IMG/VR virus record: IMGVR_UViG_3300030118_002829
Span: 1 to 64,000 of that record
Reading direction: 5' to 3' (one strand)
DNA length: 64,000 bases
Origin: an uncultured virus (IMG/VR IMGVR_UViG_3300030118_002829)
Lineage: Duplodnaviria > Heunggongvirae > Uroviricota > Caudoviricetes
The notes under the pieces: model-generated
What the model was told of the DNA's origin: nothing
Databases searched by the model: none
What the model saw: the letters and a program-made list of their open reading frames with translations, nothing else
Part shown: positions 20,801 to 57,752 of the stretch, one piece after another
Layout: every line of letters starts with the position of its first letter
Numbering within the stretch: the first letter of the stretch is position 1
Program-made: the position numbers and the translations under genes

Positions 20801-22359
20801 TTGTTATGGTCTAAATCAACAGAACATGAAAGCACATCTATTATCAAGAAAACTGCATCTAAAGCAGGGTCCGTTGAAGCCGCTTGGTCAGCCGCTAAAT
20901 CTCCTACATCTAAAGTCATAGTTGTTGCAGTAACATCAGTGGCACTATCAATACAATATGTATCATTATTAGAACCATTAGTGGCATTTCTTATTACTAT
21001 TCTAGTATCTCTTAAGATGCCATTTAGACCCCAAGCAGTCCTATCACCATCTAATGTTTCAGTTCCATTATTAGTAATAGTTGCCCCCGAAGCCCCTTGA
21101 AATGCTTCTCCGTTTACTGCGGCTAATGTGATGGTATCAGCACTACTTCCATTTTCATTTAATGCTATACCATTATCGGCAAATACAATATAATCCATTG
21201 CCGCAGGGTCATCTGCTTTATACATCATATCTACCAAAGTAGCCTCCATAGTAAATGGGCCATAATCTACAATGTGCGCTTCATGTTCTTGGTCAGTAAC
21301 GAAAGTAGAATAAGTGTAAGTATGGCTGGAACCATTCCATGATGAACTTCTAAGAATATATCTTGTAGCAGGTTCTAATCTATCCTTTCCGTTTAAGAAA
21401 AAGAAAAACGGTCTAGATACATGGGTGTTAATATGATGCCGTATGCTAGAATCAGAAGCCTGTAAACCATAAGCGCAAGCAACTAATGTTTGATTATCTG
21501 AATCTATTTTAGGTAAACTGGAATTTAAAGATGAGAAGATAGCAAATTTAGTATCTTTAGGAATATCTACGCCCAATGAAGGGCTAAATTCTATTTTATC
21601 TCCAAATATATCATCTTGTAATATCTCTGTTATTTTAGCAAAATGATGTTGATTAGCATCGTCAGAATAAACCAAGACCCATAAATGGTCAATATTATCT
21701 ATTTCATAAACTTGAGATTCATCAGCATGACTAGTAATAATAGAATTATTATGTCCTCTGATTACTTGTAATGTAGAACCAACTACTCTCATAACGAACA
21801 TCTGCTCATTTTCAATAATTATAACATCACCTGCGGCAATACTAGCGGTAGAATCAACCACTACTTGAGTAGTTGAATCGTCTATTGCGCCATTTAATGT
21901 AGTTCTTATATTAACAAATGATTGTCCTGTTAAAGTTAAATAATCAAATATTTTTAGTTGATTGCCTCTAGTTGATTCTAGATTAGATAGATGGTCACTA
22001 ATAGTAGTAGAATTAGGATACACTCGATTTACTGCCGAGTATGTCTGTGTTGAACTGTTTGATTGATTGATACCATTTACTGAATTAGTTAATACAGTAT
22101 TATCGGCCTTATGAATTTCATAACTATTTATTGTAGCATCAGCAGTAGCAGCAGTAAAATCATCAAAATTTTCTGTTACTGTTCCTCTTGTTAGTAGAGG
22201 ATTAAGTGGAGTTTTGTAAATTGCTTGTTGTAAAAAATTATTAGCGTAATTAGTATTTGAAGTAGGAGCAGTAGATATTTTAACTTGACCGCTAGTGCTT
22301 TCGGTAATTCCTTTACCCATAGCAAAGACACCAGTAAAATTACCCATGCCTTTGGTCAT
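11830..22359 (-). CDS. Giant tail hub/adsorption protein (3509 aa)
   Basis: VFKGTVESV...KIRGRN and C-terminal YNEVIVYG...SIDKFG...AGDIVTL hub-like segments separated by many inserted beta modules. Confidence 0.72.
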   Translation of the reverse strand: MTKGMGNFTGVFAMGKGITESTSGQVKISTAPTSNTNYANNFLQQAIYKTPLNPLLTRGTVTENFDDFTAATADATINSYEIHKADNTVLTNSVNGINQSNSSTQTYSAVNRVYPNSTTISDHLSNLESTRGNQLKIFDYLTLTGQSFVNIRTTLNGAIDDSTTQVVVDSTASIAAGDVIIIENEQMFVMRVVGSTLQVIRGHNNSIITSHADESQVYEIDNIDHLWVLVYSDDANQHHFAKITEILQDDIFGDKIEFSPSLGVDIPKDTKFAIFSSLNSSLPKIDSDNQTLVACAYGLQASDSSIRHHINTHVSRPFFFFLNGKDRLEPATRYILRSSSWNGSSHTYTYSTFVTDQEHEAHIVDYGPFTMEATLVDMMYKADDPAAMDYIVFADNGIALNENGSSADTITLAAVNGEAFQGASGATITNNGTETLDGDRTAWGLNGILRDTRIVIRNATNGSNNDTYCIDSATDVTATTMTLDVGDLAADQAASTDPALDAVFLIIDVLSCSVDLDHNKMYCPVDSSNHLKNSFRMANRTTDDALYSTKTGYSRYMHYCDSPLTNTIIPNAMEMIEYESVTSTGGYVDIVFADTQKILAKKIKEGDSLLINQIVESEIVGKERTFPIAEIDRNTGSFSASSGVNTLEAINLGNEKDMRFFLSSVILNSSTSTTSRYDPLYDTITTNVDGTLYHFNIDTIFNKSNSNQNGTMQFMKVRSWRKATDTEYALTSASPMTNVPTFNATAFRRKYSFLADNLLTNIPIDTKINNYILTGAFSSNADGWNRNVTNFERLTQTLNPINDNLTGTGANTRPSLNVGEVQLERASQSRNNDIHLVLKGGQVTGHRIKVEYGDKHNSFLKLQTHLKDERLLENFNKTDDLVGLYSGLKTTHTSLYSYPVNSGNDADGNPRYDLARSNTSTRFYARGILSYLDYFSGTIDIEKTVFKGTVESVEQVIEDGMFKLKIRGRNTASELLGPVINKDFKFTEDIVYSTVGPVERMARVTKVDTTVTDHATHGITYTDDGVYPVGTTEIQISGITSSSDNPTIQKGDLLYTSQGIFLGRVHKITDVAGDGNFTPAVILFEEGIPTRLKDGEAIMCSFYETPTETFDFSSSDQLDVSSTVSTTRIPIRGNTISLAKSLSSNPYTTTRVNSLLGAKDKGIIFTGGKSLSLTDDNAPFKDGSNLVGTSSSSNPLAKGYSINSPEGIDFDFPFYCNVADEISNKYGVNYVNLHTVNSLTEYDVINLSSNERETVIEMAPICPAVLARVDNNPIDSRDKYLLQIGAFTSSEILGYNGVFQIAQASWMEELKQGDFIFDENGELFGKIIDISLGSSDGILNDRVAFTLDRPLFKTISATEKIMKYYGNASPAQYFSGTTIKFDGNSVAGTSFGSTQGWSVARLFSSDSATQTFLQSLEAGMRIKIEGPTNTLDNIGIFSVAHVFEDDTNDSEVILFTRKHPNGKKTTQSQGSFRDDTSGQTVRITVLTDYFTQGLYFLNTQGLSQGGVLTLTNPILSSPNEADNNCKPIKWASSLYHHITDTSLAHASGGIYNPNASAPTIFSDMIDRYGNTKWRYFGLQKGKYLSYINRRLKDGKIKTTYSLEKGKVNGYATAYRISDAKYGKNKLMKFPYGYHNNDFAWGVFRTTYTSSSDTSLGTSDYYTAEFTNGIKHNLSFLEYLSPESRDFRPVMGSNFADFDKYGTAIITPDHPRYRVGIYPRFMARLHDNHRGGDWQEDLDAPENSTIPHTILKYRKWKALSTDSNDFDYDIDYAGTGNPTYIDPNAGNSDTITQSLDSQWVKIGGQNDKNNNRTFKLSALGADVSGKFTLDVTKPPFTKIGTHTDTGAVGGSAQNSTGFEEITILHSPFIGPKFDGITRAKDHWELPDPKALRWFIFSPADMYPDSMSRKHHIGYSGIVNYDSSSETAISRRFSDYSLLLKSKSSFSNSNTPHEYYEGSLQNEEEIDDNYITVPISDSSIAPSQMKRFGLMRLIDCTYDWHFNLIDPERLPSDITQMTTPNFEYTRYQGLKKIHLRTTGSELFPAFYGDNNTIINLTGNPNSLLQKGDQLFTNTGHYIGKVKRTANAVTDSTCDVTNGDATITCDASANVFVGMEVRPSGSLSGWPSGQVSVTSINTGTEGTNVTSFEISSNYTGSTTSNVSLIFEHHIELEGASRKIIKSDGSAGLYDGYLYIVSDGTSTLAEQDYWDSFFRFHTKGKGGKNTFTVPTESVETHMLQQMWNAASHDASSQDTTYDLIPHTYHPVNGVKPYFFFQIPYGVVEQADDDSHGPLATNNPIGLAVNDDAYQKSDAGPDNTDIDVNISEPSNDDPSPKFLSSFTRNFIQAMGPQAIIDPVSNATDTSTGDTNYLTNLATTRYNPIIALPPAFRTFYATSASRISTGLTINNMQEKKYLVTKARTPINSGVFVNESDFSAGSQFTITVDDGSGGDSLATTKFPVNSVVYDPSNNPVGKVKAVTATQITLFSRNAKDLDNNDELHFTEDNTIDTEYCHPSNVLEFIQHGGNPYAGCSVISLASYTVEDSLPTNLPVGARTFIRNLQQKITKNFGHSRPKLTSPASSDSDRSEAIYGDGTGKLNTQTPFSNKSNEFNFLTTLGNFKSGFANSNSDLTQNANSFSYVGQGTGYVANGVFGVFHPELFLGGMEKVSLGAASGTQSEAENDKGLFAFHSINQQSRNSITDLKPDLGVLRILSSISPNETGASRNFNHNDKNSWLNFVDLTGMYLVANFGTEEGQKTTRRNFAPFSGELTVNTYGQVQPIEAYDIPAALVSPVFGTDGERSTKTRVIEEEFFLSNCSYSTSNAIVTYTGEEDIRNILRAGMIVKGYGMVAGGVVINSVDSATQFTLSHTPNAGPVLPDGSAGSNTLGFIGSGGGVTGLDNCMVDPDHIIYVHEHRRNVTGKEVAHELLIDNIPYNKNGEAQFFNNYRVMRPAETCLWPNSPNEISIGKLSGSTTKQPQSELMYGYVPSITNISSNNNFTGPDEEQILSDFAGFMGDNEPPMSMYLAVDMDARHSQYQTLGAININDKSSTVTSSGLFTSDKIQEGDVIKLKHSKYFVKSIESVNSLTIAGQYRGGNLTNETAYVCNNTYTVLRNYSHLFNPSGNRNTFKDGSSYNMLLTDGINRQKISMGVNTNYYDESSLCKLSIGSIENPFLGLVSFGEIFTIKSNVPVNLSDITSARIGSTLVIGSEVEDIVNNILSDEGISYDISDNREYPYYISPNFQGVDLFNASNFAAKYKQKEIRIDEKGISLIRQSNDLDFRDITLSYENKDLKIISVTRNKSTFDLYNEVIVYGNGVKSIKRNRKSIDKFGKKTLEEVNMELISQDDVDEKAKKLLKAHSEGDDRFTVRMSVTGIEFIKAGDIVTLDFPSEGVPKNTYKVYEIRRELKGLIELEVGTYRKDLANRFAELSMLNKSNAASIRGSQFTATTAPLDFFDSVKLKELSLVIRRIGLADTNAFTLGFQTSTSRKLDFGATMGPQETITEIIREEDLT

Positions 22360-28260: not shown

Positions 28261-28509
28261 TCATTCGGAAGTTTCTGAACTTTCTTCTTCCTCCAATGTT
28301 TCTTGGGCTTCAACTTCAGCCTTTCTTTGTTCTTTAGCGGCTTGTCTTTCGGCTTCTTCAGCCTTAGCCTTTTCTTCTGCCGCTTTAGCCTTGGCTTTAG
28401 CCGCTTTTTCTTGAGCCTTTTTCTCGGCTCTTGTTCTCTTAGCCTGTTCTTCTTCGGCTATTCTTTGAGCGTATAGTCTTCTTTTCTCATACTTATCCAT
28501 TCTAATCAC
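28261..28509 (-). CDS. Small Lys/Ala/Glu-rich coiled-coil protein
   Basis: 82-aa charged helical low-complexity ORF. Confidence 0.65.
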   Translation of the reverse strand: MIRMDKYEKRRLYAQRIAEEEQAKRTRAEKKAQEKAAKAKAKAAEEKAKAEEAERQAAKEQRKAEVEAQETLEEEESSETSE

Positions 28510-30137
28510 CCTTGTAGAACCCAGTGTGTTTTGACTTCACACTTACTCATTGTTCTTGGCATAACAGTCCCTTCAATTGTAATTGGTCCTTTATCATCGG
28601 GAACAGTAAGAGTAGCCGCACTTAGGAAATAGTCTTGGAAGTTTAGTAAGATTTGCTCTCCACTGTCTTTATCGAATTGTAGAACAATCTCATTTGTTGA
28701 ACCCAAATCTTCAGCATTATTCAACAATTCTTGGAATAACTTATCGTCAGTAACTAGAGCAGTAAAGGCGATTTCATATGTCCTTTGAGCAGGAATAGCA
28801 TTCTTGATTGCTTTGCTAGAAATACCAACATATCTCTTATCTTGTAGATTATTATTAATCGTTAAGGTTAGATTGGTAATCTTTAGGAAAGTTTGACCAA
28901 AGCAACTAAACAATCCACTAGAGAAAAAGAATGGTTCTAATCCACCATTTGCTCCTGTTCCTGATGGATAATTAAGTAGAGTTGTATCTACCCCTACATT
29001 GTTTCTAGGAGTGTAGACTTCAGTAGTGGTTAAATCATTGACATAATCAACTGTTCTAGTGTTAAGGTCTAATGTCATCTTAACTTCTTCATTCTCATTA
29101 GCAGTTAGAGTAAAGGTGTTTACTCGATTGCCTCTAGCAATTCTAACAAGAGTTTCTGTTTCAGTAGCAGTTCCTTGAGTAGCAGTTACATTTGATGTTT
29201 TAGCGATACTGTGTTCTAAAGTAAAAGAGGGTAAGTCGGTCCCGTTAGCCTCTGAAAATTCATAGGTAATTGGGTTTTGAATTACACCTGCCGCAGTAAA
29301 AGTAGGAACAGTCAATTTATTCAGATTTGCAGGAGTATCTACACTAATAACAACTGGGGGCATTAATTGAGTATCTTCTCTAGTCCTGTAAAAGATTGGT
29401 CCTTGGTCAAGATGAGCAGTTTCAAACGAACCATCGTGAGCAGTTGAAGCAGTATCTCCTGTATCAATGTAAATTTGTTGATTAGTTGCTGCTTGCGCTA
29501 AGAAATTAGATTGAGGAACGGTAGAACCCGAAGCAGAAGTGTATTTTGCACCAGTGCATTTACCTAATGCGTAATACAACCATGTTCCTTGATTAGCAAC
29601 CAATCCAATGTTACCTCCACTTGCAGTTTCAATTCCTTTGTATTGATAACTAAAGTTTCTACTTCCGCCAAGTGCAAGATTCATTTGCTTCATCTCTACT
29701 TCCGTATTAGGGAAAGTAGCAGTTTCTACAAGACCCATCCAGTTATCAGCGTTTAACTTCAAAGAGTTTGCACCTATTCTCGGAGCAGGACAAGGAGTTC
29801 CATAAGGGTGTATATGAAAAAAGTCAAGGTCAGAAGAATCAAATGTTCCGCTAGATGCTGATAGAGCAGGTGGTGGTGAAACTGTAAAAGTAGTAGTAGT
29901 GTTAGAGGTGATAGTGTGTAAGGAAGAACTATTACTATCAGAAGCATCAAAGATTTCTACTGTGCATCCTTTATACAAATTAGGAACCAATTCCATTGTT
30001 GTAAAAGGAGACAACGGAGCAATTATACCCGTTGCTTCTGTTGATGCGCTTTCGTCTATAAATCCACTTAGCAATAGTTCTGGAACAAATGCTAAGTTTG
30101 CTTGGCTTCCTACAAATATGTCTTCATTTACTGTCAT
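28506..30137 (-). CDS. Major tail tube protein
   Basis: LPSFTLE...G.RVNTFTLTA, LTINNNL...AQRTYEI, C-terminal tube pattern; canonical position. Confidence 0.8.
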   Translation of the reverse strand: MTVNEDIFVGSQANLAFVPELLLSGFIDESASTEATGIIAPLSPFTTMELVPNLYKGCTVEIFDASDSNSSSLHTITSNTTTTFTVSPPPALSASSGTFDSSDLDFFHIHPYGTPCPAPRIGANSLKLNADNWMGLVETATFPNTEVEMKQMNLALGGSRNFSYQYKGIETASGGNIGLVANQGTWLYYALGKCTGAKYTSASGSTVPQSNFLAQAATNQQIYIDTGDTASTAHDGSFETAHLDQGPIFYRTREDTQLMPPVVISVDTPANLNKLTVPTFTAAGVIQNPITYEFSEANGTDLPSFTLEHSIAKTSNVTATQGTATETETLVRIARGNRVNTFTLTANENEEVKMTLDLNTRTVDYVNDLTTTEVYTPRNNVGVDTTLLNYPSGTGANGGLEPFFFSSGLFSCFGQTFLKITNLTLTINNNLQDKRYVGISSKAIKNAIPAQRTYEIAFTALVTDDKLFQELLNNAEDLGSTNEIVLQFDKDSGEQILLNFQDYFLSAATLTVPDDKGPITIEGTVMPRTMSKCEVKTHWVLQG

Positions 30138-30754: not shown

Positions 30755-30942
30755 TACAAGCCACTATCCTTAACTGCTTTTTCTAATCTTACAGATATTT
30801 CCTTTTCTATCGCTTCCGCCATATACTTTTCAATTTCTGCATCCGAATAAATATAATCTCCTAAGCCGCTTTCCTCAAACAATTTATTCCTTTCTTCATA
30901 CATTCTCTGTATTTGTTTAACCAATTTCATTACATCACTCAA
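30754..30942 (-). CDS. Hypothetical protein
   Basis: 62-aa translationally coupled ORF. Confidence 0.6.
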   Translation of the reverse strand: MSDVMKLVKQIQRMYEERNKLFEESGLGDYIYSDAEIEKYMAEAIEKEISVRLEKAVKDSGL

Positions 30943-32059
30943 TTAAGAACACCCCTTCTTTCTTTCCATCCACCATTGCCATTGCTTCTTTTCTCAGAAT
31001 ATCGTATTTCTCTTTTACAGATATTTGATTATCTGATTCTGTAATAAGAACAGTAGCATCATCAGAACGAAGAATTTCACATGCTACAAGTTTAGTAGCG
31101 GCATCGGTTATTTGAGCAGGAACAGTTCCACTACCCGCATAATAAGTGGCTCTTACAGAATTAAGATGAATATATGGGAATTTGTCTCTAAAGAAAATTC
31201 TACCTTCTCTATTTATTTTCCACCAATCATCCATTCTACCTGTGTCTTGTTTATCGGTAAATCCACTAACACTTATCCCGTGTTCATTTGTGGTAGCAGA
31301 ATTACCATTCAAGTAAATAGCACATTCAGCCCCATCATCACTAGGAAGTAGAGAAGAAATGAGAACCTTACTAGAGTCCTCTGAATCTAGACAAGCATAA
31401 AAGAAATCAGAAACTTGTTTTGCTCCCGTAGAATCTGTTTGCCCTTTTGCTTGAGTAGCACCTGTTAATGCCGCAGTTTTAGAAGGATATTTTTCATTGA
31501 TTAATGAAACAAGTTCCTCCGCAGCCGTTTTGTTCCCATAGGTAGTATCGAATCTCGAATTGGTAGTGCCAGCAAGTAAATTGAATACTAAACCATTATT
31601 CGGTAAACGAAGATTAATTGTAGTTGTTCCACTAATCATTGATGTATAATCATTCATCGTTACTGAGGCTTCAGCACCACAAATGTTAGTCCATTTGTTA
31701 CCCTCCCAAATATCTAAACGAATCATCTTTGAGATACTATGCCTGTCTAATTGAACAAATCCAATATAGTCACGGTATCTTCCAATAGCATAATGACCTA
31801 CGCCAAAAGTAAAATTATGATATTCCTTTTCATAAAGTAATCTTCTCCAAGATGTTTTGGTTTTACTATCAATAAAATCTTCTATTCTTTTGATAAATTC
31901 CCCTACCTCAGAATGCATGGGTGTAGTGCTGGCTGAAAATGGGGGAATCTGTAATAGTTCTGCTACCTTATCAGCAGTGGTATAATATCCTCTACCTACC
32001 GAATAATCGGGATTAATAGTAGTGGTATCAGAAGGCGATTTATACTGAGACATAATCAT
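30935..32059 (-). CDS. Head-tail adaptor protein with insertion
   Basis: YTTADKVAELL...IEDFIDSKT...W and SVRATYYAG..VPAQITDAATKLVA, gp6/gp15-like adaptor motifs. Confidence 0.75.
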   Translation of the reverse strand: MIMSQYKSPSDTTTINPDYSVGRGYYTTADKVAELLQIPPFSASTTPMHSEVGEFIKRIEDFIDSKTKTSWRRLLYEKEYHNFTFGVGHYAIGRYRDYIGFVQLDRHSISKMIRLDIWEGNKWTNICGAEASVTMNDYTSMISGTTTINLRLPNNGLVFNLLAGTTNSRFDTTYGNKTAAEELVSLINEKYPSKTAALTGATQAKGQTDSTGAKQVSDFFYACLDSEDSSKVLISSLLPSDDGAECAIYLNGNSATTNEHGISVSGFTDKQDTGRMDDWWKINREGRIFFRDKFPYIHLNSVRATYYAGSGTVPAQITDAATKLVACEILRSDDATVLITESDNQISVKEKYDILRKEAMAMVDGKKEGVFLIE

Positions 32060-33312
32060 GCCTCCGTAGCAGTTGGAATGTTTGAAATAGCATCTTCTAG
32101 TTTTTCTAATCTAGCCTTTATTAGATTAAGATAATACTTACGGGCCATATTGATTTTTTCTCCTCTAAATTCTCCTGCTCTACCCGCAGTCATTCCACCA
32201 CGACCCAAACCACGAATCCTTTCAGTTTGGCCACCAGTAGCAGACATTGTAGTTTTAGGTTTTAGAGTAGCCGTAGCAGTGGTTCTAAATCTCGTTTTAA
32301 TTTCAACTAGATTATCTAACTCATCTCCTTCAAATTTAGGAACTTTTTCATCGTCTTCATCCAACAAAAACTCTCCATAATTAGGATTAACCTGTTTTTC
32401 TCCATCCACCATTATTTCCCTTCTATTGTCTCTTTCATACAATTTGTTTTCGGGGATTTGTCTAAGACGAATAGTAAGTTCCATAGTAAAATCATAAAGA
32501 GTGTTACTGTCTAGCAATTTGTTAGGCATATTGCTTAATATAATTCTTTCAAAATCATTTCGATTATCAAAAAGACCGTCAATCAATGCTTTTTCAAAAT
32601 CCGTAGTATCTCCCTCTTTAGGTCTTAATGCTAAAACTCCTTTTAATTCATCAGAAATTGATATTATACTAGATTTACTTTCCATTGGGTCCCTATCATC
32701 TTCGGGTTTATGTAAAGCGACTTCTATTCCTAACGATTCATACCATCCTATTTTTCCATTTCTTTCTTCGGGAGTTTCTGATGGCATATCAAATTTAAGA
32801 ATTATTTTATCTTCGGGACTATCATCATCGAATCTAATAAAATCCGCTAAATCTTCTTTACTATTTATTGAATCTCTAAGTCTTTTTTCTAAATCGCTAA
32901 CAGTATAATTCTTTTCTAATGCTCCTTTTGTTTCAAAGGGAGTAATTAACTGCTCTGTTCTAGGAGTATTCCTTACATCTTTTATTTTGTAGTCATCGGG
33001 AAATTCATTTAGATTAATAGCCTTTAGATTACCTAAAGGAATATCTTTCACTAATTCTTTGAATGAAGCACTTTTGATTTTATCAAGTGTTTGCTTACTT
33101 TTAGTTTTTAGATATTCTTCTGTCTCTTTAGTATAAGTTTGACCTCTTTCTTCTAGTAACTCATCCTGTTCATCTAGAATCTCATCTTCTAATTCATCAA
33201 GATTATTTTTTCTATCGGCATCATATGGTATAAGCAGATAATCCTTAAAGGATTGATAGAATCTATTATCTTTGACCTCTTGGAGAGTGCCATCATACCA
33301 TACTAGTCTCAT
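32056..33312 (-). CDS. Hypothetical acidic protein
   Basis: 418-aa ORF, no recognised motif. Confidence 0.7.
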   Translation of the reverse strand: MRLVWYDGTLQEVKDNRFYQSFKDYLLIPYDADRKNNLDELEDEILDEQDELLEERGQTYTKETEEYLKTKSKQTLDKIKSASFKELVKDIPLGNLKAINLNEFPDDYKIKDVRNTPRTEQLITPFETKGALEKNYTVSDLEKRLRDSINSKEDLADFIRFDDDSPEDKIILKFDMPSETPEERNGKIGWYESLGIEVALHKPEDDRDPMESKSSIISISDELKGVLALRPKEGDTTDFEKALIDGLFDNRNDFERIILSNMPNKLLDSNTLYDFTMELTIRLRQIPENKLYERDNRREIMVDGEKQVNPNYGEFLLDEDDEKVPKFEGDELDNLVEIKTRFRTTATATLKPKTTMSATGGQTERIRGLGRGGMTAGRAGEFRGEKINMARKYYLNLIKARLEKLEDAISNIPTATEA

Positions 33313-33317
33313 TTAAA

Positions 33318-34001
33318 TCACGCAAGCCACTTAGCCCAAGCCGCACCTTTCTGAACTAATTTACTTAATCCTAATCCACTGTTAGGAGGAGTATAGGTCG
33401 CTTGACCAGTAGCGGGGTCAATCCAGTATGGGTTATTGTAATTATCATAACCACTTGGAGGAACAGGATAACCACTTTGGTTAGTCATAGCCCCTTGTCC
33501 CATAGCCATGTTTTGATTCATACCACCTGTTATTGGCGCACCTTGGATATTAGCAGGAACATTATTTTGCATTTGAGGTTGTCCTCCTGCTTGACCATCT
33601 CCAAATCCTTGAGCCTCCAAGTATTGATTCTTTGCCATTTGTCTTTGATATACGACTTCTTGATTGATTGACGATGCTAATATTTGTTGAATATCCAATT
33701 GAATATTTTCTTCTGTAATTCTCTCATACTCAGCAAGGCATCCCTTTTCTAGAGTAATATCTCCTTGAGTTGCTTCTAATTTAAAATGTAATTTAGTTAG
33801 CATTCTACTCATTACTCTTTCAATAACATCTTCCAATAATTTCTCATAAGAAGTAAAGAATGCTTCGCCATGATACAATAAAAATTCTTCAACATGGTTA
33901 TCTTGTAGAGTCAAAAGATTGTTCATAGCCTTGAAATTTTTATCGCTATTTTGATTCATTTGGCTTGCCAAAGCACTATTACTTGTCCCTAGTAATCCCA
34001 T
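33318..34001 (-). CDS. Helical protein with Q/G/P-rich tail, WW-like motif and C-terminal amphipathic helix
   Basis: PYWIDPATGQATYTPP; C-terminus GLGLSKLVQKGAAWAKWLA. Confidence 0.7.
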   Translation of the reverse strand: MGLLGTSNSALASQMNQNSDKNFKAMNNLLTLQDNHVEEFLLYHGEAFFTSYEKLLEDVIERVMSRMLTKLHFKLEATQGDITLEKGCLAEYERITEENIQLDIQQILASSINQEVVYQRQMAKNQYLEAQGFGDGQAGGQPQMQNNVPANIQGAPITGGMNQNMAMGQGAMTNQSGYPVPPSGYDNYNNPYWIDPATGQATYTPPNSGLGLSKLVQKGAAWAKWLA

Positions 34002-34624
34002 TATTCATCACCTATTAGTTCATCAATTTGTCCTATTTTACCTTTCAAATCCATTAGTAGTATCATCAGTTTTTCTTCTGCCGTTGTAGTATCCGCCTTC
34101 GGGGGTTGTATTTCCCATCCCTTAGAGGTTAATGAAATTATATCCTTCTCAGTTAAACTAGTTATTGGTCCCCTACTTATTACATTCGGTATTCTAGCCT
34201 TTGGGATATACTTTTTGAACTCTAATCCATGCTTTTCAGCAATCAATTGTTGCTCTAACATTTCCATTTGTTTAAACATAGAAGAATGTTTAGGACAGTA
34301 AGTTCCTCTTAACGGTCTACCTTTATGCACATAAGATAATGGAATAGGTGGTCTAAGAGTATCACCTGCTTCCCAAATGTGATGAACTCCACAAACTACA
34401 CATCTATCTTTAATGTTAAACTTGTAACCGTATTTTAATCCCAAAAGGCTTTTCTTTTCGGGCAATAATACCTTTGTTATCTCTTTCATTTGTTTCTTAG
34501 TATCAAGAGATTTGTATTCAAAATTAATTATAGGACCTGCGGCTCTCGCAGTGTTTTTTATTCTTAATGGGTTAATCATTGTATTATCATTACCAATTAT
34601 GTTTGGTGTATATATTGCGCTCAT
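34001..34624 (-). CDS. Putative Zn-binding protein in GTPase cassette
   Basis: CVVC...YCPKH (CxxC/CxxH) followed by a helical region. Confidence 0.7.
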   Translation of the reverse strand: MSAIYTPNIIGNDNTMINPLRIKNTARAAGPIINFEYKSLDTKKQMKEITKVLLPEKKSLLGLKYGYKFNIKDRCVVCGVHHIWEAGDTLRPPIPLSYVHKGRPLRGTYCPKHSSMFKQMEMLEQQLIAEKHGLEFKKYIPKARIPNVISRGPITSLTEKDIISLTSKGWEIQPPKADTTTAEEKLMILLMDLKGKIGQIDELIGDE

Positions 34625-34628
34625 TTTA

Positions 34629-35306
34629 TCAATACTCCTTTATCATTGTCATTATTCCTCGGTAGACCATTTCTGGGTCCGATTTGGCAGATACGATGTA
34701 TTTGAAACATGGTATGCCTCTATCCTGTAATCGTTGCATACCGAGTCTGAACGGTTCAAAAATTGGATGTTTCTCAATAGCCCCGTTGTGTTCATACTTA
34801 TCCTTCCACAAATCATACTTGTTGGCCCATATGCCTACTGCGATTGGGAAATCCTTGTCTTTCTTCTTTTTAGTTTTACCCTTTCCTAAACGCCAAAAGT
34901 TATCACAAATTGTATCAACTAAAAACTGCCAAGATAATTGATGTTCTAGATTGTATGCTTCTGATAAATGACGGTCATCTATCATGAATATGATGTATTT
35001 TACTTTCCTTTTCATCATATCTTTTTTCCATGCATCCCAGTAATATGATTGTCCTCCCACATCAGCAGTTTTGATGGTTCGACTATCCTTATCTATTTTT
35101 ACTGTTTTTCTACTTGCACGATGTAATCCCTTTGTTCTCTCTTTAACTACTGGGACTTCACCTCTAGTTCTCAATTGACGATGTAAAGTAGTTTTACCTG
35201 CTTTACTAGCACCATATACTCCAAAGTTTAACGCATGTATTCTTTGATACGCTTTAGCCATTGCTTCAGCCGCTAATATAGAGAAGCCCGTCAATAGTGT
35301 GGCCAT
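34629..35306 (-). CDS. Arf/Sar1/Ras-superfamily small GTPase
   Basis: G1 GASKAGKT, G2 Thr (ERTKG), G3 DVGGQ, IIFMID, G4 ANKYD, G5 VSAK; N-terminal hydrophobic/amphipathic helix. Confidence 0.9.
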   Translation of the reverse strand: MATLLTGFSILAAEAMAKAYQRIHALNFGVYGASKAGKTTLHRQLRTRGEVPVVKERTKGLHRASRKTVKIDKDSRTIKTADVGGQSYYWDAWKKDMMKRKVKYIIFMIDDRHLSEAYNLEHQLSWQFLVDTICDNFWRLGKGKTKKKKDKDFPIAVGIWANKYDLWKDKYEHNGAIEKHPIFEPFRLGMQRLQDRGIPCFKYIVSAKSDPEMVYRGIMTMIKEY

Positions 35307-35309
35307 ACA

Positions 35310-35528
35310 TCAGTCCCACCCTACTAACTCCTTTAAATTATCAATGGCCATTCCAATCAAATCTACGCCCATTGCACCCATTATGTTACCAATCAAAAAG
35401 AAAAATACAGTTGAGGTAATACCCCAAATCCAGTATCTAACCTTCAAAAAGAATATATCAGCAGAATGCGCCCTAGACAAATCATACGCTAAAGACTGTT
35501 CATCTACTCCTAAGAGTCTATCTAACAA
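35310..35528 (-). CDS. Single-TM membrane protein
   Basis: YWIWGITSTVFFFLIGNIMGAMGV hydrophobic helix; AGGTGAT SD. Confidence 0.72.
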   Translation of the reverse strand: MLDRLLGVDEQSLAYDLSRAHSADIFFLKVRYWIWGITSTVFFFLIGNIMGAMGVDLIGMAIDNLKELVGWD

Positions 35529-35540
35529 AAAGCATCACCT

Positions 35541-35945
35541 TCATTCTAATGCTTGAAGGAATGTTTCAGATACCTCATCATAGGATTGTTGTGGGCCACC
35601 GTAATAGTTTAGATTTCTACCTTTCATAGATTCTCTAATCTTTTGCTTTTGGTTTTCATCCCTTTGTTTCTTTTCCCAATACATGTCTATCTTTCTATTC
35701 AATAACCACATTTCAAATCTATCATTAATTGCTAAATCAAAAAGTGCTTTCTGTAACATGATTACACCTACTGTAATCAAGCCAAACAATACTGCGTGTG
35801 TAACTGCCGTAAATGGTAATTGACTACCATAGTTGGAATAGAAATAAACATTCATTCCACACATTGCACCTACATACATTATCGTCATTATCAGCCTAGT
35901 ATCTTTATTTATAGCCGCCATTATATCCCTCTCAAATAAATTCAA
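35541..35945 (-). CDS. Two-TM membrane protein with charged cytoplasmic tail
   Basis: LIMTIMYVGAMCGMNVYF and AVLFGLITVGVIML helices; likely start MAAINK. Confidence 0.72.
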   Translation of the reverse strand: MNLFERDIMAAINKDTRLIMTIMYVGAMCGMNVYFYSNYGSQLPFTAVTHAVLFGLITVGVIMLQKALFDLAINDRFEMWLLNRKIDMYWEKKQRDENQKQKIRESMKGRNLNYYGGPQQSYDEVSETFLQALE

Positions 35946-36699: not shown

Positions 36700-37038
36700 T
36701 CAGATAAGACCGTATGCTCTCACTCTAACAGTTCCTTCATTTGAAGTTCCAGATTGTTCAGAACTACCAACATTTAGAAGAATAGCAAAGGTGGAGGAAG
36801 AAGCGTATGCTCCTGTTTCAGCAGTTACTACTGCTCTAGCGGAATGAGTTTCTTCCTCAACACCTGTTACTATTACACAATTAACTGTGGATAAACCTAA
36901 ATCAGAAGCGGAAATAACTTCACCGTTTTGAGTATATGCAGTAATATCAATTGCTGCATCCACAAAGTATTCATCACCCGAAACTCTAGGGGCAGTTGCT
37001 CCCTTATGGTCTGCGATTATAGTTATACTGTGAGTCAC
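36700..37038 (-). CDS. Putative capsid decoration/cement protein
   Basis: Directly downstream of MCP; Y..NGE.I...DLGL...VRVRAYG. Confidence 0.6.
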   Translation of the reverse strand: MTHSITIIADHKGATAPRVSGDEYFVDAAIDITAYTQNGEVISASDLGLSTVNCVIVTGVEEETHSARAVVTAETGAYASSSTFAILLNVGSSEQSGTSNEGTVRVRAYGLI

Positions 37039-37048
37039 TTAAATCACC

Positions 37049-38410
37049 TCACTTCAAGTTGGTGATTTTACCTTGTCCTCTGAAGAAGGTGCAACCAGTC
37101 TCTCCCATTGTTCTGTAAAGTCCTCTGTTACCTAGAACACCTACACCGAATGGGTTTCCATGAGAAATACCATCCTCAAAGTATTGGGTAGGCTTCATTG
37201 TAGCAAACCATAGATGGTCAGTGTCTAGCAATAGCATGTCGGATAGACCGCTTGTTGCCGCACCTGTCTTTGGCATGTCTTTACAAGGAATTAGTGGAAT
37301 ATCGTAGTATGTTGCGACTCTGAATCCGACTTCTTGACCTTTAACACCCTTTACACCGTTATGGGTTGGGATAACTTCTTTAGCATCCATGAATCTTTCT
37401 TGGCTTTGTAGCAAGTCAGACAATGCTTGGATGGTATCATATCCAGTTAGGATAACCTTTGGAGTTCCGCCATTCAATCTTAGATTCTGGATAACATCGT
37501 TAATGATGCTTAGTGTTAGAACACGACCCGCAGTAGCATAAGAAGCACCGTAGTTTACGACTGAATCCATGAAAGATGCGCCACTTGCTCTTGAGTTGTT
37601 ACCGTAAAGAGTTGTTACATCAGCGTCTAGGTCAGCAATAGCACTAGAAACACTTGAAAGTCTATCTAGTTCACCACCTGTATCTGACAACTCATCGTTA
37701 CTGCTAACAATCTTCAATAGAGAAGTATAGTTTTCACGAATTCTACCAGTTGAGGTATCATTACCTAGTGTGTCATAGTTTTCAAGAGGCATTACTAGCA
37801 TAACCGATTGAGATTCTGCGTGGAATTTACCCATATCTTCACGAATGAGTTTACGAATGTCTCCAACACCATCATCAATCTTAGCCATTTCAGCCGCAAG
37901 TTCTGAGTAATCGAACATATGAGCAACAATCTTTGGATTCATGTGTAGAGTTGTGTATTCGGGAGCAAGGGCTTTCAACTGTGTGCTATCCAATGCTTCG
38001 TTTTCTCCAACACCACCGAGCAAATCTCCATCGGGAGTTGCTGAACCTTGTGCGCCAGTTCCAGTAGTTGCGCCAACTGCGAAAGCAGCAGCACTACCAC
38101 CTTGAGGTCTGTTAATCATAACTCTCCAACCGCTAGAGGTATATGGCCTCTTAGGTAGAATAGATAGTGGATTAATTTCTTGGTTAATCATTGACCAAAC
38201 TTTTTGGCCGTAAACCATATTGTAAAGTGCGGTTAGGTTTGAACCTGCACTTCCGTTAAGAGTTAGTGCAGTATCAGACGAACCAGTAAAACCACTGTTG
38301 ATAGAACCAACAATACCAGCCGACTTCAATAGGTTGTTTCCACCCATGTTACCATAGGTTGCTCTTTCCAAATCTTGAATTGTGTTAATATATTTTGTCA
38401 TCTTCTTCAT
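37049..38410 (-). CDS. Major capsid protein (HK97 fold)
   Basis: YG.KVW..IN.E.N..SILPK.P...SGWRV N-terminus, GG.PKVILTG.DT, QGKITNLK C-terminus; follows protease. Confidence 0.9.
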   Translation of the reverse strand: MKKMTKYINTIQDLERATYGNMGGNNLLKSAGIVGSINSGFTGSSDTALTLNGSAGSNLTALYNMVYGQKVWSMINQEINPLSILPKRPYTSSGWRVMINRPQGGSAAAFAVGATTGTGAQGSATPDGDLLGGVGENEALDSTQLKALAPEYTTLHMNPKIVAHMFDYSELAAEMAKIDDGVGDIRKLIREDMGKFHAESQSVMLVMPLENYDTLGNDTSTGRIRENYTSLLKIVSSNDELSDTGGELDRLSSVSSAIADLDADVTTLYGNNSRASGASFMDSVVNYGASYATAGRVLTLSIINDVIQNLRLNGGTPKVILTGYDTIQALSDLLQSQERFMDAKEVIPTHNGVKGVKGQEVGFRVATYYDIPLIPCKDMPKTGAATSGLSDMLLLDTDHLWFATMKPTQYFEDGISHGNPFGVGVLGNRGLYRTMGETGCTFFRGQGKITNLK

Positions 38411-38434
38411 CTCCTTGTTATTTCTCTAATGGGT

Positions 38435-39967
38435 TTAGAGTTGTCCCTCCAATCTTTCAACTAGAGCGTTAATGTCACTCCAATCCATCTTTGCGATTTC
38501 ATCACCATTAGGAATGTTTAGTTCTGCAACTGCTTCTTCTTGCTTACGAATTACAGTTTCTTCTTCTGCCTTTAGGTTAGTAAGAAGGTCAGTAAATTGC
38601 TTTCTTAGTTCAGCGACTTCTGCTTTAGCATCATAGTTTGCTTTCTCGATTTCCTCAGTCTTAGCAACCATTTCAGCATCAAATCTTGCTTGGAATCCAG
38701 ACTTTACTTTCTCAAAAGCCATCTTCTCAAGTTGTTCTGCTTTAAATTCAGCGTAAGCCTTCTCCAAGTTTTCGGGAGATAGGTCAAGAGTAGATTGGTC
38801 TTCAAACTTAGCCATGTATTTACCATCCAATTGAGGATGAGGGTCATCTACATATTCACCTGCGTTACCTGCTTCTACTTGACCAGTAGCCAAATCTGGT
38901 CTTGACTTCTGTTCCATGTCATCAGCCATTTCCATGTCATCTTTCTTGTCACCAGTATCCATGTATTCTCCACCCATTCCTTTTTCTTCGGGGTGCATTC
39001 CTTTTTCATGCATACCTTTCTCATCTTCTTCCTTATCCATGTAAGTCTTTTCTTCTTCTTCTTTAGCGACCATTTCTGTTCCCTCGGATATTTTGTCATT
39101 TTTCTCTATGTTCTTTATAGTGTTTTCCGTAGATTTGTTCATTTGATTCATTCTATCACGATTAAACCTATCTACCATTCTTTGTAGTTCAGCCCTTTCA
39201 ATTATACCTCTACCTAATGCCTGTTCATACGGACCCATTGACACTTCGCCAGTGGTATTTTCCATATCGTCTTTCATAGCATCTATTACCTCTTTCTTTG
39301 TGTAATTCTTTCCGCTAGTCAATACTTCTAGGTATTGCATCTTTACTACGCTTTCATTATTGTATGCGGCATTTGCTTCATCCAATGTCTTGTTCAGTTC
39401 TTCTAGTGCTTTGCTTATTGCATCCATTTTATCACCTTTTTCCATTTTTAGTATGTCAAATTTGGCTTCGGGGTTAATTCCCTTTTCACAAATCGTTACT
39501 TCATGGAGTTCTAATTTGGAGATTTCATTATATTCTCCGTATTCTTTGTGGGTCTTCTTTCTCTTTTCTAAGGCTTGACCCCCAATACTAAATGAGCGTA
39601 GAGAACCATCTCTAATTTCTCTACCAACCTCTTTTGCTTTTTCTATGTCTTCTCTCATCTTAATGACAACAAAGAATCCAACATCATCTACTTCGGTCTT
39701 GTATAGTTTACCTGTTTTATCTCTATAACTAGGAATAACCTCTCCAACTTGAACATTAGAATGATTAGTCATTACATTTCTAAACTTGGTAATCTTCATG
39801 TATTTCTCTACTGCTTCTTGTAGAGCATCAAGGGTAATAAGGTCGTTCTGCTTATCTACCATTTCAATAGAAGCATATCCTCCAATGACTAAATTATTGG
39901 ATTTAAGAATAGTAAACGGGTCATTTCTAATTGCATTAATAGAAGGACTGGCAACTAAAGAACCCAT
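38435..39967 (-). CDS. Prohead protease fused to scaffolding domain
   Basis: IGGYAS.E.VDKQND, NH, SFSIGG, LHEVTICEKGINPEAKF (HK97-type protease); acidic coiled-coil C-terminal part. Confidence 0.9.
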   Translation of the reverse strand: MGSLVASPSINAIRNDPFTILKSNNLVIGGYASIEMVDKQNDLITLDALQEAVEKYMKITKFRNVMTNHSNVQVGEVIPSYRDKTGKLYKTEVDDVGFFVVIKMREDIEKAKEVGREIRDGSLRSFSIGGQALEKRKKTHKEYGEYNEISKLELHEVTICEKGINPEAKFDILKMEKGDKMDAISKALEELNKTLDEANAAYNNESVVKMQYLEVLTSGKNYTKKEVIDAMKDDMENTTGEVSMGPYEQALGRGIIERAELQRMVDRFNRDRMNQMNKSTENTIKNIEKNDKISEGTEMVAKEEEEKTYMDKEEDEKGMHEKGMHPEEKGMGGEYMDTGDKKDDMEMADDMEQKSRPDLATGQVEAGNAGEYVDDPHPQLDGKYMAKFEDQSTLDLSPENLEKAYAEFKAEQLEKMAFEKVKSGFQARFDAEMVAKTEEIEKANYDAKAEVAELRKQFTDLLTNLKAEEETVIRKQEEAVAELNIPNGDEIAKMDWSDINALVERLEGQL

Positions 39968-40004: not shown

Positions 40005-42488
40005 CTAAATTTTTAATTTAAAATCCTTATCTTCTCTAATGTCCCAAAGGCCATCGTCTGTTTCGGGGTCTACGGGTTTTTGTTCTATACCAGTCCAAGC
40101 GAGCCACCTATCCTTTCCTTCTACTGGTATAACTCTAACATGAAACTTAGTATCAAATTTATTTCCAGTTAATATGTATTCATGATAACCATGTCTCTGA
40201 ACTCCTAATTCTACTTTACCAGAATCTATGAGTTTACCAACTTCTATTTTCCTTACAACTTGTGCAGGGTATTTACCCGATTTACCAAATAGAGTAAAAA
40301 TATCATCTTCATTTTCTATTGCTATGTCCCAACCAATAGTTTCGTCTGATAATTTGAATAAGATAGAAAGATTACCATCGTCTTTATAATAAATTTTGAA
40401 ATCACCATTGCGATATTTATCGGGAGTTTTGTATTTAGATTTTAGAACATCCTTTTCTAGAATATCGGGTTCAGCAAAAAATAAATTCTTTTCTTTATCA
40501 TAACCAATATCTTCTAGATTTTTTAGATAATTCATTAATGCTTTAGGTTTACTATCAAAGATATTATTGTAAGGTTTCTTCTGTTTTTCATTGACAAAAT
40601 CTTCTATTTTAGAAAATGGAGATTCACCGTTCTCTAAAAGATAATTCCTAATTGATACTCTGAATGCTCCCTTTTCTCTTTTTATCAATTCTTCTATTTC
40701 TGTCTTCCAAACATCAATATCTAGTAAAGCATTCTTAGCCATCAGATTATTTTCTTCAAATCCATAAAATGTAAATCCATCTAAATCTGATTTGATAATG
40801 GCAGTAGCATTACCGTGAATAGTATCACTTATGCGAAATCCCTTCTCTAATGCTTCTATATCATAGTTGAGTGATTTCTTAGTATCTTGAGATAATAGGT
40901 CTAATGTAATCAGTTTTTCGGGAAGTTCGACTTCGGGTATTTCTATAACTTTAGCGGAAAATAAAGTATAGCCTTCATCATTTTTCTTTACTTCATCTAT
41001 CTTAACACGAATAATAGTTCCAACTTCAACATCTATTTTTGTGTTCAATGCTTTACCAACATTAAGATATTCTCTATCATTAATTGTCTTAGTATTAGAG
41101 TAAGTATCCTTATCTGTTAATGGACCTGCCCCTAGAGTATAGGTAAACATATTTGATTTAGTGGTTTTCTTATCTAAAACCATCATATCCAAATCTACAA
41201 ACTTTTTCCACTTAACCCATTTAGGATTTTTCTTAGTTCCTATAAAGTAAGTAGAAGTTACATCTTTTATCACTACTCCTTCAGCAGTAGGAATTTTCAT
41301 AATTTCTTTTGAGTATTCTTCGACTTCTTTCACAGAATCAGCATAGCGAGTATCTTTCTTAGAAGGGAACGCTAACTTCTCATGAGAATGGGTAGAATAA
41401 TTATTGAATAAAATAGTCATTCTTTCTATGAGTTCTTTCTCATGTAATTCTTCACTTTCATGTCTCATTATGTCGAATACATGCGCTCTCAATTCCGTAT
41501 CTGATTCTTTGTCTTTGAAGATTCTAGCAACTACCTCTGCTCGATGTAATGCTTCTTTACCCTTGAATAGTAAAAGTTCAGCATCTAAAATACAATCTCC
41601 GAAATGTTTGGCTTTCATTACCTTAACTTGTTCGGGACATTTCTTTGTAATGTCTTTGCCATTAAACGAGAATATCTTAACTTGGTTATCTATCTTATGA
41701 ATCTGAATTCGCATCCCATCGTATTTTTCTTGGACTACCCACTTTCCAGTGAATCCTCTTAATTGTTCTAAATCATCAATCTCAAATATTCGATACATTG
41801 GTTTGTTAGGAACCAAAAAATGTTCTTCGGCTTTCATAGCCTTTTCCAAACTAACAGTCTTATCCCAATTTTTACGACTGTGATGATTAACAAATACTTC
41901 CTCTAATAATTTTCTAGCACCTAGATATTTACCTTTGATTCTTTTTGTATCTTTATCATCACCATAATGCTCAACAATAAAATCTAAAATATCTTTTTCA
42001 GCAAGATTTAATCCCTTGAATCCTTCTGTAATATCATCGGGTTTCAAATCGTTTTTTTCCCATGCTTCATCACTAAGGGATTTGTCATGGTTTCTCATAG
42101 CCCAGTGTATAAACTTAGCAAACAAAGATTCGTTTTCCAACAACTCATCTAATACATCTTCTCCATATTTTACAGAGAACGGGTCCTTTACTATACCCGA
42201 TGAATATCTTAATTCCTTAACTTGAGAATATATCTTTCTAGCACTATCACTTTCTACATCTTCGGCTTCATCAGAAAATAATTCTTTTTCATTGATTATC
42301 TGTTTAATCTCTTTGCTAAATTCATCAATGTCATCCCATTGTTCTCTAAGAGTTTTAACTTCACTCGCCCATTTACTACCATATCTTTTCTTATCAGAAA
42401 GAGCAGATAAGTAAGACATTCTCATTTTTTCAAAGAATTGAATTACTCTAACAGTTAGAGGGTCATCTTTGATAACTGAGACAGGCAC
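40005..42488 (-). CDS. lig: ATP-dependent DNA ligase with N- and C-terminal extensions
   Basis: Motif I EKYDG, ILDAE, VFDI, EGVVIK, WVKWK, OB fold. Confidence 0.92.
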   Translation of the reverse strand: MPVSVIKDDPLTVRVIQFFEKMRMSYLSALSDKKRYGSKWASEVKTLREQWDDIDEFSKEIKQIINEKELFSDEAEDVESDSARKIYSQVKELRYSSGIVKDPFSVKYGEDVLDELLENESLFAKFIHWAMRNHDKSLSDEAWEKNDLKPDDITEGFKGLNLAEKDILDFIVEHYGDDKDTKRIKGKYLGARKLLEEVFVNHHSRKNWDKTVSLEKAMKAEEHFLVPNKPMYRIFEIDDLEQLRGFTGKWVVQEKYDGMRIQIHKIDNQVKIFSFNGKDITKKCPEQVKVMKAKHFGDCILDAELLLFKGKEALHRAEVVARIFKDKESDTELRAHVFDIMRHESEELHEKELIERMTILFNNYSTHSHEKLAFPSKKDTRYADSVKEVEEYSKEIMKIPTAEGVVIKDVTSTYFIGTKKNPKWVKWKKFVDLDMMVLDKKTTKSNMFTYTLGAGPLTDKDTYSNTKTINDREYLNVGKALNTKIDVEVGTIIRVKIDEVKKNDEGYTLFSAKVIEIPEVELPEKLITLDLLSQDTKKSLNYDIEALEKGFRISDTIHGNATAIIKSDLDGFTFYGFEENNLMAKNALLDIDVWKTEIEELIKREKGAFRVSIRNYLLENGESPFSKIEDFVNEKQKKPYNNIFDSKPKALMNYLKNLEDIGYDKEKNLFFAEPDILEKDVLKSKYKTPDKYRNGDFKIYYKDDGNLSILFKLSDETIGWDIAIENEDDIFTLFGKSGKYPAQVVRKIEVGKLIDSGKVELGVQRHGYHEYILTGNKFDTKFHVRVIPVEGKDRWLAWTGIEQKPVDPETDDGLWDIREDKDFKLKI

Positions 42489-57462: not shown

Positions 57463-57752
57463 TGCAATTCCTCCTGTCTGTATTTATCTAAAGCATCAGT
57501 TTCTTGATACTCTTGTAAAAATTCCATAACTGCTTGAACACAATGATAAGTTAGCATATATTCTGCACCTTCTAATTCTTCTTCTTCTGTTACTTTTATA
57601 ATATCTTCAATTTCTCTCATTACAGGAGAAAGAACTGCTTTCACTTTGGCTAGCCCTTCTTTAGAAGTAGGTGTTGATGTAAGAGCCTGTCCTTTTAATG
57701 GTAGTAAAAAGGAACTTGGACTCAAGTTCTTTAAAATATCTCCCCAACTCAT
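57459..57752 (-). CDS. Hypothetical protein, MSWGDILK N-terminus
   Basis: 97-aa ORF. Confidence 0.7.
   Translation of the reverse strand: MSWGDILKNLSPSSFLLPLKGQALTSTPTSKEGLAKVKAVLSPVMREIEDIIKVTEEEELEGAEYMLTYHCVQAVMEFLQEYQETDALDKYRQEELQ

Follow-up and report, generated by a model that had tools for sequence, protein, structure and literature searches.

The window analysed here is a stretch of 64,000 nucleotides from an uncultured tailed virus (positions 1 to 64,000 of the IMG/VR record IMGVR_UViG_3300030118_002829). At positions 33318-35945 it carries a cassette of five open reading frames (ORFs), all on the minus strand, that encodes a small GTPase and four companion proteins. What is new here is a candidate Arf-like membrane switch that is encoded by a virus and accompanied by orphan partners. 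We read the five genes as one conserved, virus-specific module around a small-GTPase switch that would act at the cytoplasmic face of the membrane late in infection, a tentative reading to which we assign a probability of roughly 0.38. Its most likely role, arrived at by elimination and not from direct evidence, would be to time or trigger a late membrane event for the release of progeny.

Neighbouring genes of the cassette are separated by gaps or joined by overlaps of 1-12 nt, which confirms the description of five tightly packed, co-directional genes in an earlier note on this DNA. In the direction of transcription they are:

35541-35945, minus strand: membrane protein with two transmembrane (TM) segments (2-TM protein), 134 amino acids (aa) from a TTG start
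35310-35528, minus strand: membrane protein with one TM segment (1-TM protein), 72 aa
34629-35306, minus strand: small GTPase, 225 aa
34001-34624, minus strand: protein with paired cysteines and histidine (Cys/His protein), 207 aa
33318-34001, minus strand: helical protein whose tail holds a low-complexity linker (hereafter linker protein), 227 aa

The small GTPase

The GTPase is complete, as had been proposed. The G1-G5 motifs, among them G1 (GASKAGKT), G3 (DVGGQ), G4 (NKYD) and G5 (SAK), are invariant in 27 aligned relatives, including residues K38, T39, D82, G84, G85, N162, K163, D165, S206, A207 and K208. Among 105 distinct sequences from three lineages, the G1 pattern GxxxxGK[ST] and the G4 pattern NKxD occur in all 105 and DxGGx in 100, and the position that follows the two glycines of G3 is occupied by Q, E, D or H. 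Two tryptophans after G3 are invariant in the 27 relatives, a pair that we take to be reminiscent of switch II in Arf, Sar1 and G-alpha; the SAK form of G5 is presumably Ras/Rab-like.

The AlphaFold2 model of the GTPase is of moderate quality only, with a mean predicted local distance difference test (pLDDT) score of 63.2. In Foldseek it obtained 17 matches at E<=0.001, including G-alpha, Rab and Arf, and in VIA-align 32 chains at Z>=8, all of those listed being GTPases. An Asgard Rag-like protein (Z 10.3), G-alpha-s (9.8; G-alpha proteins 9.5-9.8), Arf6 (9.8), SR-beta (9.7), Arl15 (9.5) and Sar1 (9.2) are tied within about 1 Z, and Rab, Ras and Miro at 7.5-8.1 (Rab/Ras 7.5-7.9) lie below this Arf/SR-beta/G-alpha/Rag group. 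At the sequence level the affiliation is faint. The Pfam family Arf (PF00025) was matched with 22.7 bits against a gathering cut-off of 22.3, and only over profile positions 19-93, which is under half of the profile. Weak Pfam matches (E<=0.01) among the 27 relatives went to MMR_HSR1 (23), Roc (21), SRPRB (17), Arf (17) and Ras (12). NCBIfam returned only TIGR00231 (small_GTP) with 19.3 bits, under its cut-off of 42.5 bits, and the best E value of the GTPase profile against the PDB was 0.02 (Arl8, KRas). A family profile, searched against 1.84 billion representative proteins, reached only 84 at E<=0.001, mostly fragments of the same family; just two bear names, a Heimdallarchaeal 'Rab family GTPase' and an 'SRP receptor subunit beta', and the farthest full-length matches, the Heimdallarchaeal one among them, carry a clearer Pfam Arf signal of up to 57 bits. 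Some homologues bear the automatic JGI name 'GTPase SAR1 family protein'.

Judged by its motifs and its modelled fold, the protein is a genuine small GTPase of the Ras superfamily (TRAFAC class), though one that has diverged very far. The model places it broadly in the Arf/SR-beta/G-alpha-like part of the superfamily, membership in the Arf family proper being unestablished. The label 'Arf/Sar1-like' of the earlier note is thus acceptable only as a broad placement by fold, among Arf, Sar1, SR-beta, G-alpha and Rag; in sequence the Arf match is marginal and other families match about equally weakly. A hydrophobic N-terminal helix had also been proposed; residues 2-25 are indeed predicted to form a hydrophobic helix (hydrophobicity H 0.45-0.76), but one that is modelled with low confidence and is only moderately amphipathic (hydrophobic moment muH 0.25-0.54), closer in appearance to a hydrophobic anchor than to an amphipathic helix of the classic kind. 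The GTPase is basic, with 43 K+R against 25 D+E and a net charge of about +18. It contains a polybasic loop ahead of G4 whose basic character is kept in all three lineages.

The partner proteins

The two membrane proteins stand out by hydropathy, with highest 19-residue Kyte-Doolittle means of 2.07 (2-TM protein) and 1.84 (1-TM protein) against at most 1.37 in the other 13 genes of the region, in agreement with their earlier assignment. The 2-TM protein has a coiled-coil-like C-terminal tail rich in K, R, E and D that ends in a conserved F-L. Its alignment with 17 relatives contains 31 invariant columns, and the relatives start at an internal methionine (~35921); judged from this alignment, the true start is probably this M near 35921, for a protein of about 126 aa. 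Its topology is probably N-in, C-in, and the bulk of both membrane proteins may be cytoplasmic. Like a holin, which is a small membrane protein with one TM segment or more and a hydrophilic, charged C-terminus, the 2-TM protein is small and has two hydrophobic stretches and a charged tail, but such features are generic; a comparison with the PHROG holins detected no homology to any of them. A PHROG match to a tail terminator (E 0.0026) was rejected because it spans the charged tail only, and the NCBIfam matches of the 2-TM protein are noise. In the 1-TM protein an invariant R-A-H-S-A motif precedes the TM segment.

The Cys/His protein contains a CxxC and, about 31 residues further on, a CxxH motif, with helices on both sides. 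The four residues of these motifs, which the earlier note had recognised, do not vary among 18 close relatives (C75, C78, C110 and H113); across 49 sequences from two lineages C75, C110 and H113 are invariant and the second cysteine has moved by two positions (CxxxxC). The pattern suggests that the protein probably binds Zn. Its AlphaFold2 model has a mean pLDDT of 72.7, with a core (residues 40-135) at about 77-92. Foldseek found no match to this model in the PDB at E<=0.001, and the best values of a wide VIA-align search (Z 4.1) and of a PDB profile search (E 0.11) are at chance level. The best ESM Atlas score (0.82) is below the level often reached by shuffled proteins, and the Pfam scan at E<=0.1 returned 0 families. 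By these PDB searches the modelled protein is without a match to any known fold. A GTPase-effector fold was considered and rejected, as helical hairpins of the Rab-binding-domain type appeared at Z 3.2-3.8 only, again chance level. The complex prediction for the GTPase with the Cys/His protein scored 0.00, which gives no verdict for or against a contact.

The linker protein consists of a helical N-terminal domain, a length-variable linker rich in Q, G, P, M and N, a conserved segment rich in Y, P and W, and a Trp-rich C-terminal helix. The Q/G/P-rich tail with an amphipathic end that the earlier note had recognised was found again: the C-terminal AAWAKWL is invariant and the terminal helix is amphipathic (muH ~0.35-0.51). 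In the Pfam scan at E<=0.1 this protein matched Mo25 alone, at a chance-level E of 0.04, and it had no usable match in the ESM Atlas.

Conservation in three lineages

Lineage 1 comprises 43 IMG/VR loci that encode a GTPase 58-93% identical to that of the window. The order of the five genes is kept in all 43 as far as the fetched DNA extends. The 2-TM and the 1-TM protein are each present in 43/43 loci, the Cys/His protein in 41/43 and the linker protein in 34/43, and every absence of the last two is a locus whose end is reached before the gene (9 loci in the case of the linker protein). Identities to the window were averaged separately over the 29 nearer and the 14 farther loci. No other gene of the region is conserved as well as the GTPase, with means of 84% (nearer) and 62% (farther) against 82% and 59% for the major capsid protein (MCP). 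The remaining four cassette genes, which also rank high in conservation, have means of 70-75% and 47-55%, and three small genes that follow the MCP gene reach 44-53% and 36-45% where they were detected.

Lineage 2, with a GTPase of 240 aa, was found in 145 loci, 80 of which were kept. The GTPase occurs in 80/80 of these (E 1e-30 to 1e-43 against the lineage-1 profile), and a homologue of the Cys/His protein follows it in 75/80. Comparison of the two lineages with hhalign confirmed homology, with 96.7% (E 4e-10) for the Cys/His protein and 89.4% (E 2e-6, 94 columns) for the helical domain of the linker protein. The lineage-1 hidden Markov models detected no 2-TM protein, no 1-TM protein and a single linker protein in the 80 loci. 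A 2-TM protein with a coiled coil and a 1-TM protein stand at the equivalent positions in lineages 2 and 3, and the lineage-2 block is closed by an additional 2-TM gene.

Lineage 3 (GTPase of 252 aa; 11 metagenome loci) was found in metagenome contigs; a lineage-3 query had no match in IMG/VR. It has the same six genes as lineage 2, plus inserts, and all six components align between these two lineages with hhalign values of 93.1-99.9% (2-TM protein 98.6%, 1-TM protein 93.1%) against at most 0.7% for mismatched controls. For the membrane proteins of the window, homology to those of lineages 2 and 3 went undetected (0.7% and 1.2% for the 2-TM protein, 1.1% and 0.6% for the 1-TM protein). Conservation of the cassette in three lineages excludes chance as the origin of the arrangement, and the synteny check suggested with the earlier note found the genes together in all related loci examined. 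In lineage 3 a family 2 glycosyltransferase is encoded just upstream of the cassette (L139:3257-4117, plus strand; PF00535, E 1e-13). Another TM protein with a very basic tail is also located upstream, and the gene of an acidic protein of 250-260 aa, an insert, separates the GTPase from the 1-TM gene.

Searches beyond these lineages found little. The GTPase and the Cys/His protein had no tblastn match at E<=0.1 in the GenBank phage collection. Among GTDB genomes the viral GTPase (63-64% identity) appeared in two contigs only, NZMJ01000024.1 and NZMJ01000101.1, both from one metagenome-assembled genome labelled Maricaulis; these are probably mis-binned magrovirus contigs, without host information.

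Genomic position and gene neighbourhood

A distance of 1.1 kb separates the MCP gene from the start of the cassette, which lies downstream of it. The neighbours of the cassette in the window are:

38435-39967, transcriptionally upstream of the cassette: S78 prohead protease that carries a long acidic tail as a fusion
37049-38410, upstream: HK97-type MCP (PF17236, E 4.9e-8; phrog_24667, E 1.8e-24)
between the MCP gene and the cassette: the three small genes
32056-33312, minus strand, directly downstream: variable acidic protein of 418 aa
30935-32059, downstream: protein of 374 aa, function unassigned
28506-30137, downstream: tail-tube-like protein

The MCP has named relatives only in tailed viruses of haloarchaea and methanogens (26-29% identity). 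The flanks proposed earlier stand for the capsid genes upstream, MCP and S78 protease; the 'head-tail adaptor' is unsupported, as the only matches of the gene at 30935-32059 are phrog_17057 and the hypothetical gene 117 of HCTV-1.

Collinearity between the window and HCTV-1, a related halovirus, extends over four genes, which are those of the protease and the MCP, gene 117 (E 1.8e-9 against 30935-32059) and the tail-tube-like gene 121 (E 6e-6). Its interval from the MCP to gene 117 holds four small genes (113-116), none of which resembles the cassette; one of the four has a hydropathy of 1.71, barely over the mark of 1.6. With HCTV-1 and the GenBank phages lacking it, the cassette appears as an autonomous module of magrovirus-like viruses and not as part of an ancestral head and neck order. 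Three complete genomes of lineage 2 measure 107-118 kb, and one of them has terminal repeats. Their MCP homologue (45-46% identity) lies on the same strand 21-23 kb downstream of the GTPase; there the cassette adjoins a homologue of the helix-turn-helix (HTH) gene at window positions 57749-58411. The block thus moves as a unit, outside the neck gene order. A location 'inside the virion operon', as the earlier note had it, is therefore accurate for the lineage of the window but not for lineage 2.

The parent record of the window measures 94,290 bp and is rated 100% complete by CheckV. It encodes a split family B DNA polymerase, a Cas4-like nuclease, an ERCC4 nuclease, RFC, ribonucleotide reductase, two proteins with ATP-dependent ligase domains, ThiF, JAB, a group II chaperonin, an HMG-CoA-lyase-like protein, a portal and a large terminase. 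This gene content matches the published description of magroviruses, order Magrovirales (PMC10768690), and the record represents the complete 94-kb genome of a tailed virus of magrovirus-like type. The two pieces of the polymerase lie one at each end of the record (window 367-1296, plus strand, and L126:8293-9960, plus strand), which fits a circularly permuted genome; a split PolB-NTD/CTD is named in a legend of the ICTV profile (PMC10768690).

Several further observations concern the surroundings of the cassette. The acidic 418-aa gene at 32056-33312 (minus strand) is hypervariable, with 25-65% identity in 12 loci and no detection in farther loci, next to well-conserved neighbours. Within the morphogenetic string, between the portal-side genes and the prohead protease, an 827-aa protein (40005-42488, minus strand) carries an ATP-dependent DNA ligase domain (PF01068, E 4e-27), and a second, canonical ligase of 509 aa is encoded in the replication module (L126:33-1562). 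The tail region contains a single ORF of 3,509 aa (11830-22359, minus strand), possibly a giant fibre or adhesin, followed by ORFs of 829 and 697 aa without Pfam hits. Two adjacent paralogous HTH genes (57749-58411 and 58416-58859, minus strand), of which lineage 2 has a single homologue directly after the cassette, could be a late regulator or small terminase. A ThiF-like (E1-like) gene adjoins a gene with a JAB domain at genome positions 78562-79661 (plus strand; L125:14562-15661), with the group II chaperonin close by, and the two could be a ubiquitin-like modification pair of the virus. One marine metatranscriptome, in which 6% of the sampled words were present, yielded four contigs, all on the MCP/protease region 36725-38580; this single run is uninformative on expression of the cassette.

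Comparison with known systems

The nearest described layout is that of ArvABC (OapABC) in Haloferax volcanii and other archaea. The operon there begins with ArvA, a GTPase of Arf-like type whose N-terminal helix is amphipathic, and ArvB and the Zn-ribbon protein ArvC follow (PMC10927574). Both systems place a small GTPase with an N-terminal helix, predicted in the case of the virus, beside a small Cys-rich protein that binds Zn (here probably) and a third cytoplasmic protein, and in both the membrane is the proposed site of action. The module described here differs in being encoded by a virus, in its two or three extra small TM proteins and in a GTPase far from all cellular families. The earlier note had pointed to OapA/ArvA; no link to the partners of that GTPase was found. 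A six-frame search of the 94-kb genome for OapC (PF09845, DUF2072) gave 0 matches at E<=0.01, with the control positive in 3/14 genomes including Haloferax volcanii. Scanned against Pfam at E<=0.1, the five proteins matched neither DUF2073 (ArvB, SepF-like) nor OapC, but only GTPase families and, at chance level, Mo25.

With eukaryotic Arf, Sar1, SR-beta and Arl proteins the GTPase shares the G1-G5 motifs, a G3 of the DxGGQ type, a predicted N-terminal helix and a fold match of its model (Z 9.2-9.8). It differs from them in its marginal sequence match, its polybasic insert and the varying residue after the two glycines, and the Arf-type fold is not distinctive, G-alpha and Rag scoring as high as Arf. 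Giant viruses of eukaryotes likewise encode members of the Ras superfamily, an example being the Rab of mimivirus (PDB: 5xc5; fold Z 7.7). They are clear Rab homologues from eukaryotic hosts, whereas the cassette GTPase belongs to a prokaryotic tailed virus, is orphan-like in sequence and has conserved partners of its own. Holin/antiholin cassettes of phages resemble the module in their small, late-expressed membrane proteins, late expression being presumed for the module; one protein of the module has two TM segments and a highly charged tail that is probably cytoplasmic (holin features as given in PMC10791045). They differ from it by an adjoining endolysin, none being found here among the genome ORFs scanned. 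We know of no lysis cassette that includes a GTPase. By layout the module is nearest to ArvABC, by fold to Arf/Sar1/SR-beta/G-alpha and by presumed role to phage holins; by the tests run it is a member of none of them.

Proposed role and alternative explanations

Two integral membrane proteins, a basic GTPase with a hydrophobic helix and a protein with a Trp/Lys amphipathic helix point to the cytoplasmic face of the membrane as the site of action, and the modelled fold of the GTPase is close to membrane-acting GTPases (Arf6, SR-beta, Sar1, Arl). That the cassette is tightly packed with the morphogenetic genes and shares their orientation suggests late expression, and conservation equal to that of the MCP argues for an essential step. 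Release is ranked first among the possible roles on account of this list of membrane parts, of the lack of a recognisable lysis enzyme and of the lack of known release machinery in archaeal tailed viruses. As to the lysis enzyme, the earlier remark that no endolysin is recognisable could be extended from the window to the 94-kb genome: no hydrolase family was detected in the cassette or in the 72 genome ORFs scanned with Pfam, the 3,509-aa ORF lying outside that scan. The players in the egress of tailed archaeal viruses are called 'completely uncharacterized' in a review (PMC10791045). According to the same text the hosts have no murein; an endolysin is unexpected there, and its absence says little (PMC10791045). 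Holin-like genes have been proposed, as far as the accessible text goes, only for the unrelated Adrikavirales (PMC11706807).

Under this reading the hydrophobic N-terminal helix and the polybasic loop would dock the basic GTPase on the membrane next to the two TM proteins. The Cys/His protein would serve as its regulator or effector, and the linker protein, long and flexible in its linker and rich in Trp in its terminal helix, would tether the assembly to the membrane. The holin-like, membrane-disrupting element may be the 2-TM protein, whose charged tail would face the cytoplasm. Taken a step further, the module could be the missing release machinery of archaeal tailed viruses, in which a viral Arf-like GTPase, in place of holin concentration alone, times the rupture by small membrane proteins; we regard this extension as doubtful. 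If true, it would be a viral exit system of a kind not known in any domain.

Several points weigh against release by such a switch. The traits that recall a holin (a charged tail and TM segments in a small protein) are generic and come with no endolysin partner, and the tiny external loops of the membrane proteins make an attack on the S-layer impossible. The presumed catalytic residue after the two glycines of G3 varies, so that hydrolysis may be slow or partner-dependent. The AlphaFold2 model of the GTPase is poor in the switch region (residues 33-87, pLDDT <50) and of low confidence in the N-terminal helix (residues 2-25, block pLDDT ~51-53). As the membrane proteins show no detectable homology between the window and the other lineages, their assignment to the same module rests on position and topology. 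The distance of the lineage-2 block from the head genes weakens the positional argument for late action.

The same parts could instead organise assembly in space, the GTPase and a tether drawing procapsids, the packaging process or the assembly of tails towards a site on the membrane without disrupting it. MinD/ParA-type and FtsA/ZipA-type tethers organise other assemblies, and we liken the linker protein, with its folded domain, long low-complexity linker and terminal amphipathic helix, to ZipA or FtsA linkers and MinD-type membrane-targeting helices. The position between head and neck genes in lineage 1 and the MCP-like conservation would suit such a role as well. Yet a need for a membrane in the assembly of tailed viruses is not known, HCTV-1 builds the same set of head and neck genes without the cassette, and 21-23 kb separate the block from the head genes in lineage 2; we consider this explanation unlikely. 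Still less probable is a membrane complex without a role in release that blocks superinfection, alters division or transport, or counters host defence. Small viral membrane proteins frequently serve exclusion, the block relocates as a whole in the manner of accessory modules, and the nearest cultured relatives do without it. However, none of the related regions examined lacked the cassette, four of the genomes among them, from two lineages, being complete or nearly so; it is co-oriented with late genes, and conservation at the level of the MCP is unusual for accessory or arms-race genes.

Capture and strong divergence of a vesiculation system of the ArvA/ArvB/ArvC type, which would bud vesicles with virions or genomes, for example, or as decoys, would account for the parallel layout, in which the genes of a Cys/His protein and of a third cytoplasmic protein come after that of a GTPase with an N-terminal helix. 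This origin is quite improbable. OapC was not found in the genome by a search with a positive control, neither the Cys/His nor the linker protein matches DUF2073 or OapC, and the GTPase profile reaches just the 84 proteins given above; the ArvABC operon, as its source describes it, is without TM proteins (PMC10927574). That the five genes encode ordinary head-completion or neck proteins of unusual appearance is practically excluded, in spite of their location between the MCP gene and the homologue of HCTV-1 gene 117 and of the weak tail-terminator match of the 2-TM protein. A GTPase and two proteins that carry TM segments are among them, HCTV-1 genes 113-116 are matched by none of the five, and the block is distant from the head genes in lineage 2. 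The collinear HCTV-1 thus has no counterparts, in line with the earlier expectation that the neighbours of the GTPase would not prove to be ordinary neck proteins.

Novelty and significance

No publication was found that describes the module or joins magroviruses with a GTPase. The term 'GTPase' is absent from the main texts of PMC5434244, PMC10160649, PMC11706807 and PMC8651126 and from the supplements of the first two; the supplements of PMC11706807 and Zhou et al. 2023 (Environ Microbiol) could hold an annotation. As far as these searches show, a prokaryotic tailed virus that encodes its own small GTPase with dedicated partners is an undescribed case. The module may serve egress or membrane remodelling, vesicle packaging or tethered assembly. 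Even with a role in assembly or in host control, conservation at the level of the capsid in an abundant group of marine viruses calls for a function, and the module is small enough for expression in model archaea. It bears on the origin and spread of Arf-like membrane switches outside eukaryotes, and it is a concrete, conserved and compact candidate for how archaeal tailed viruses act on the membrane of their host or exit from it.

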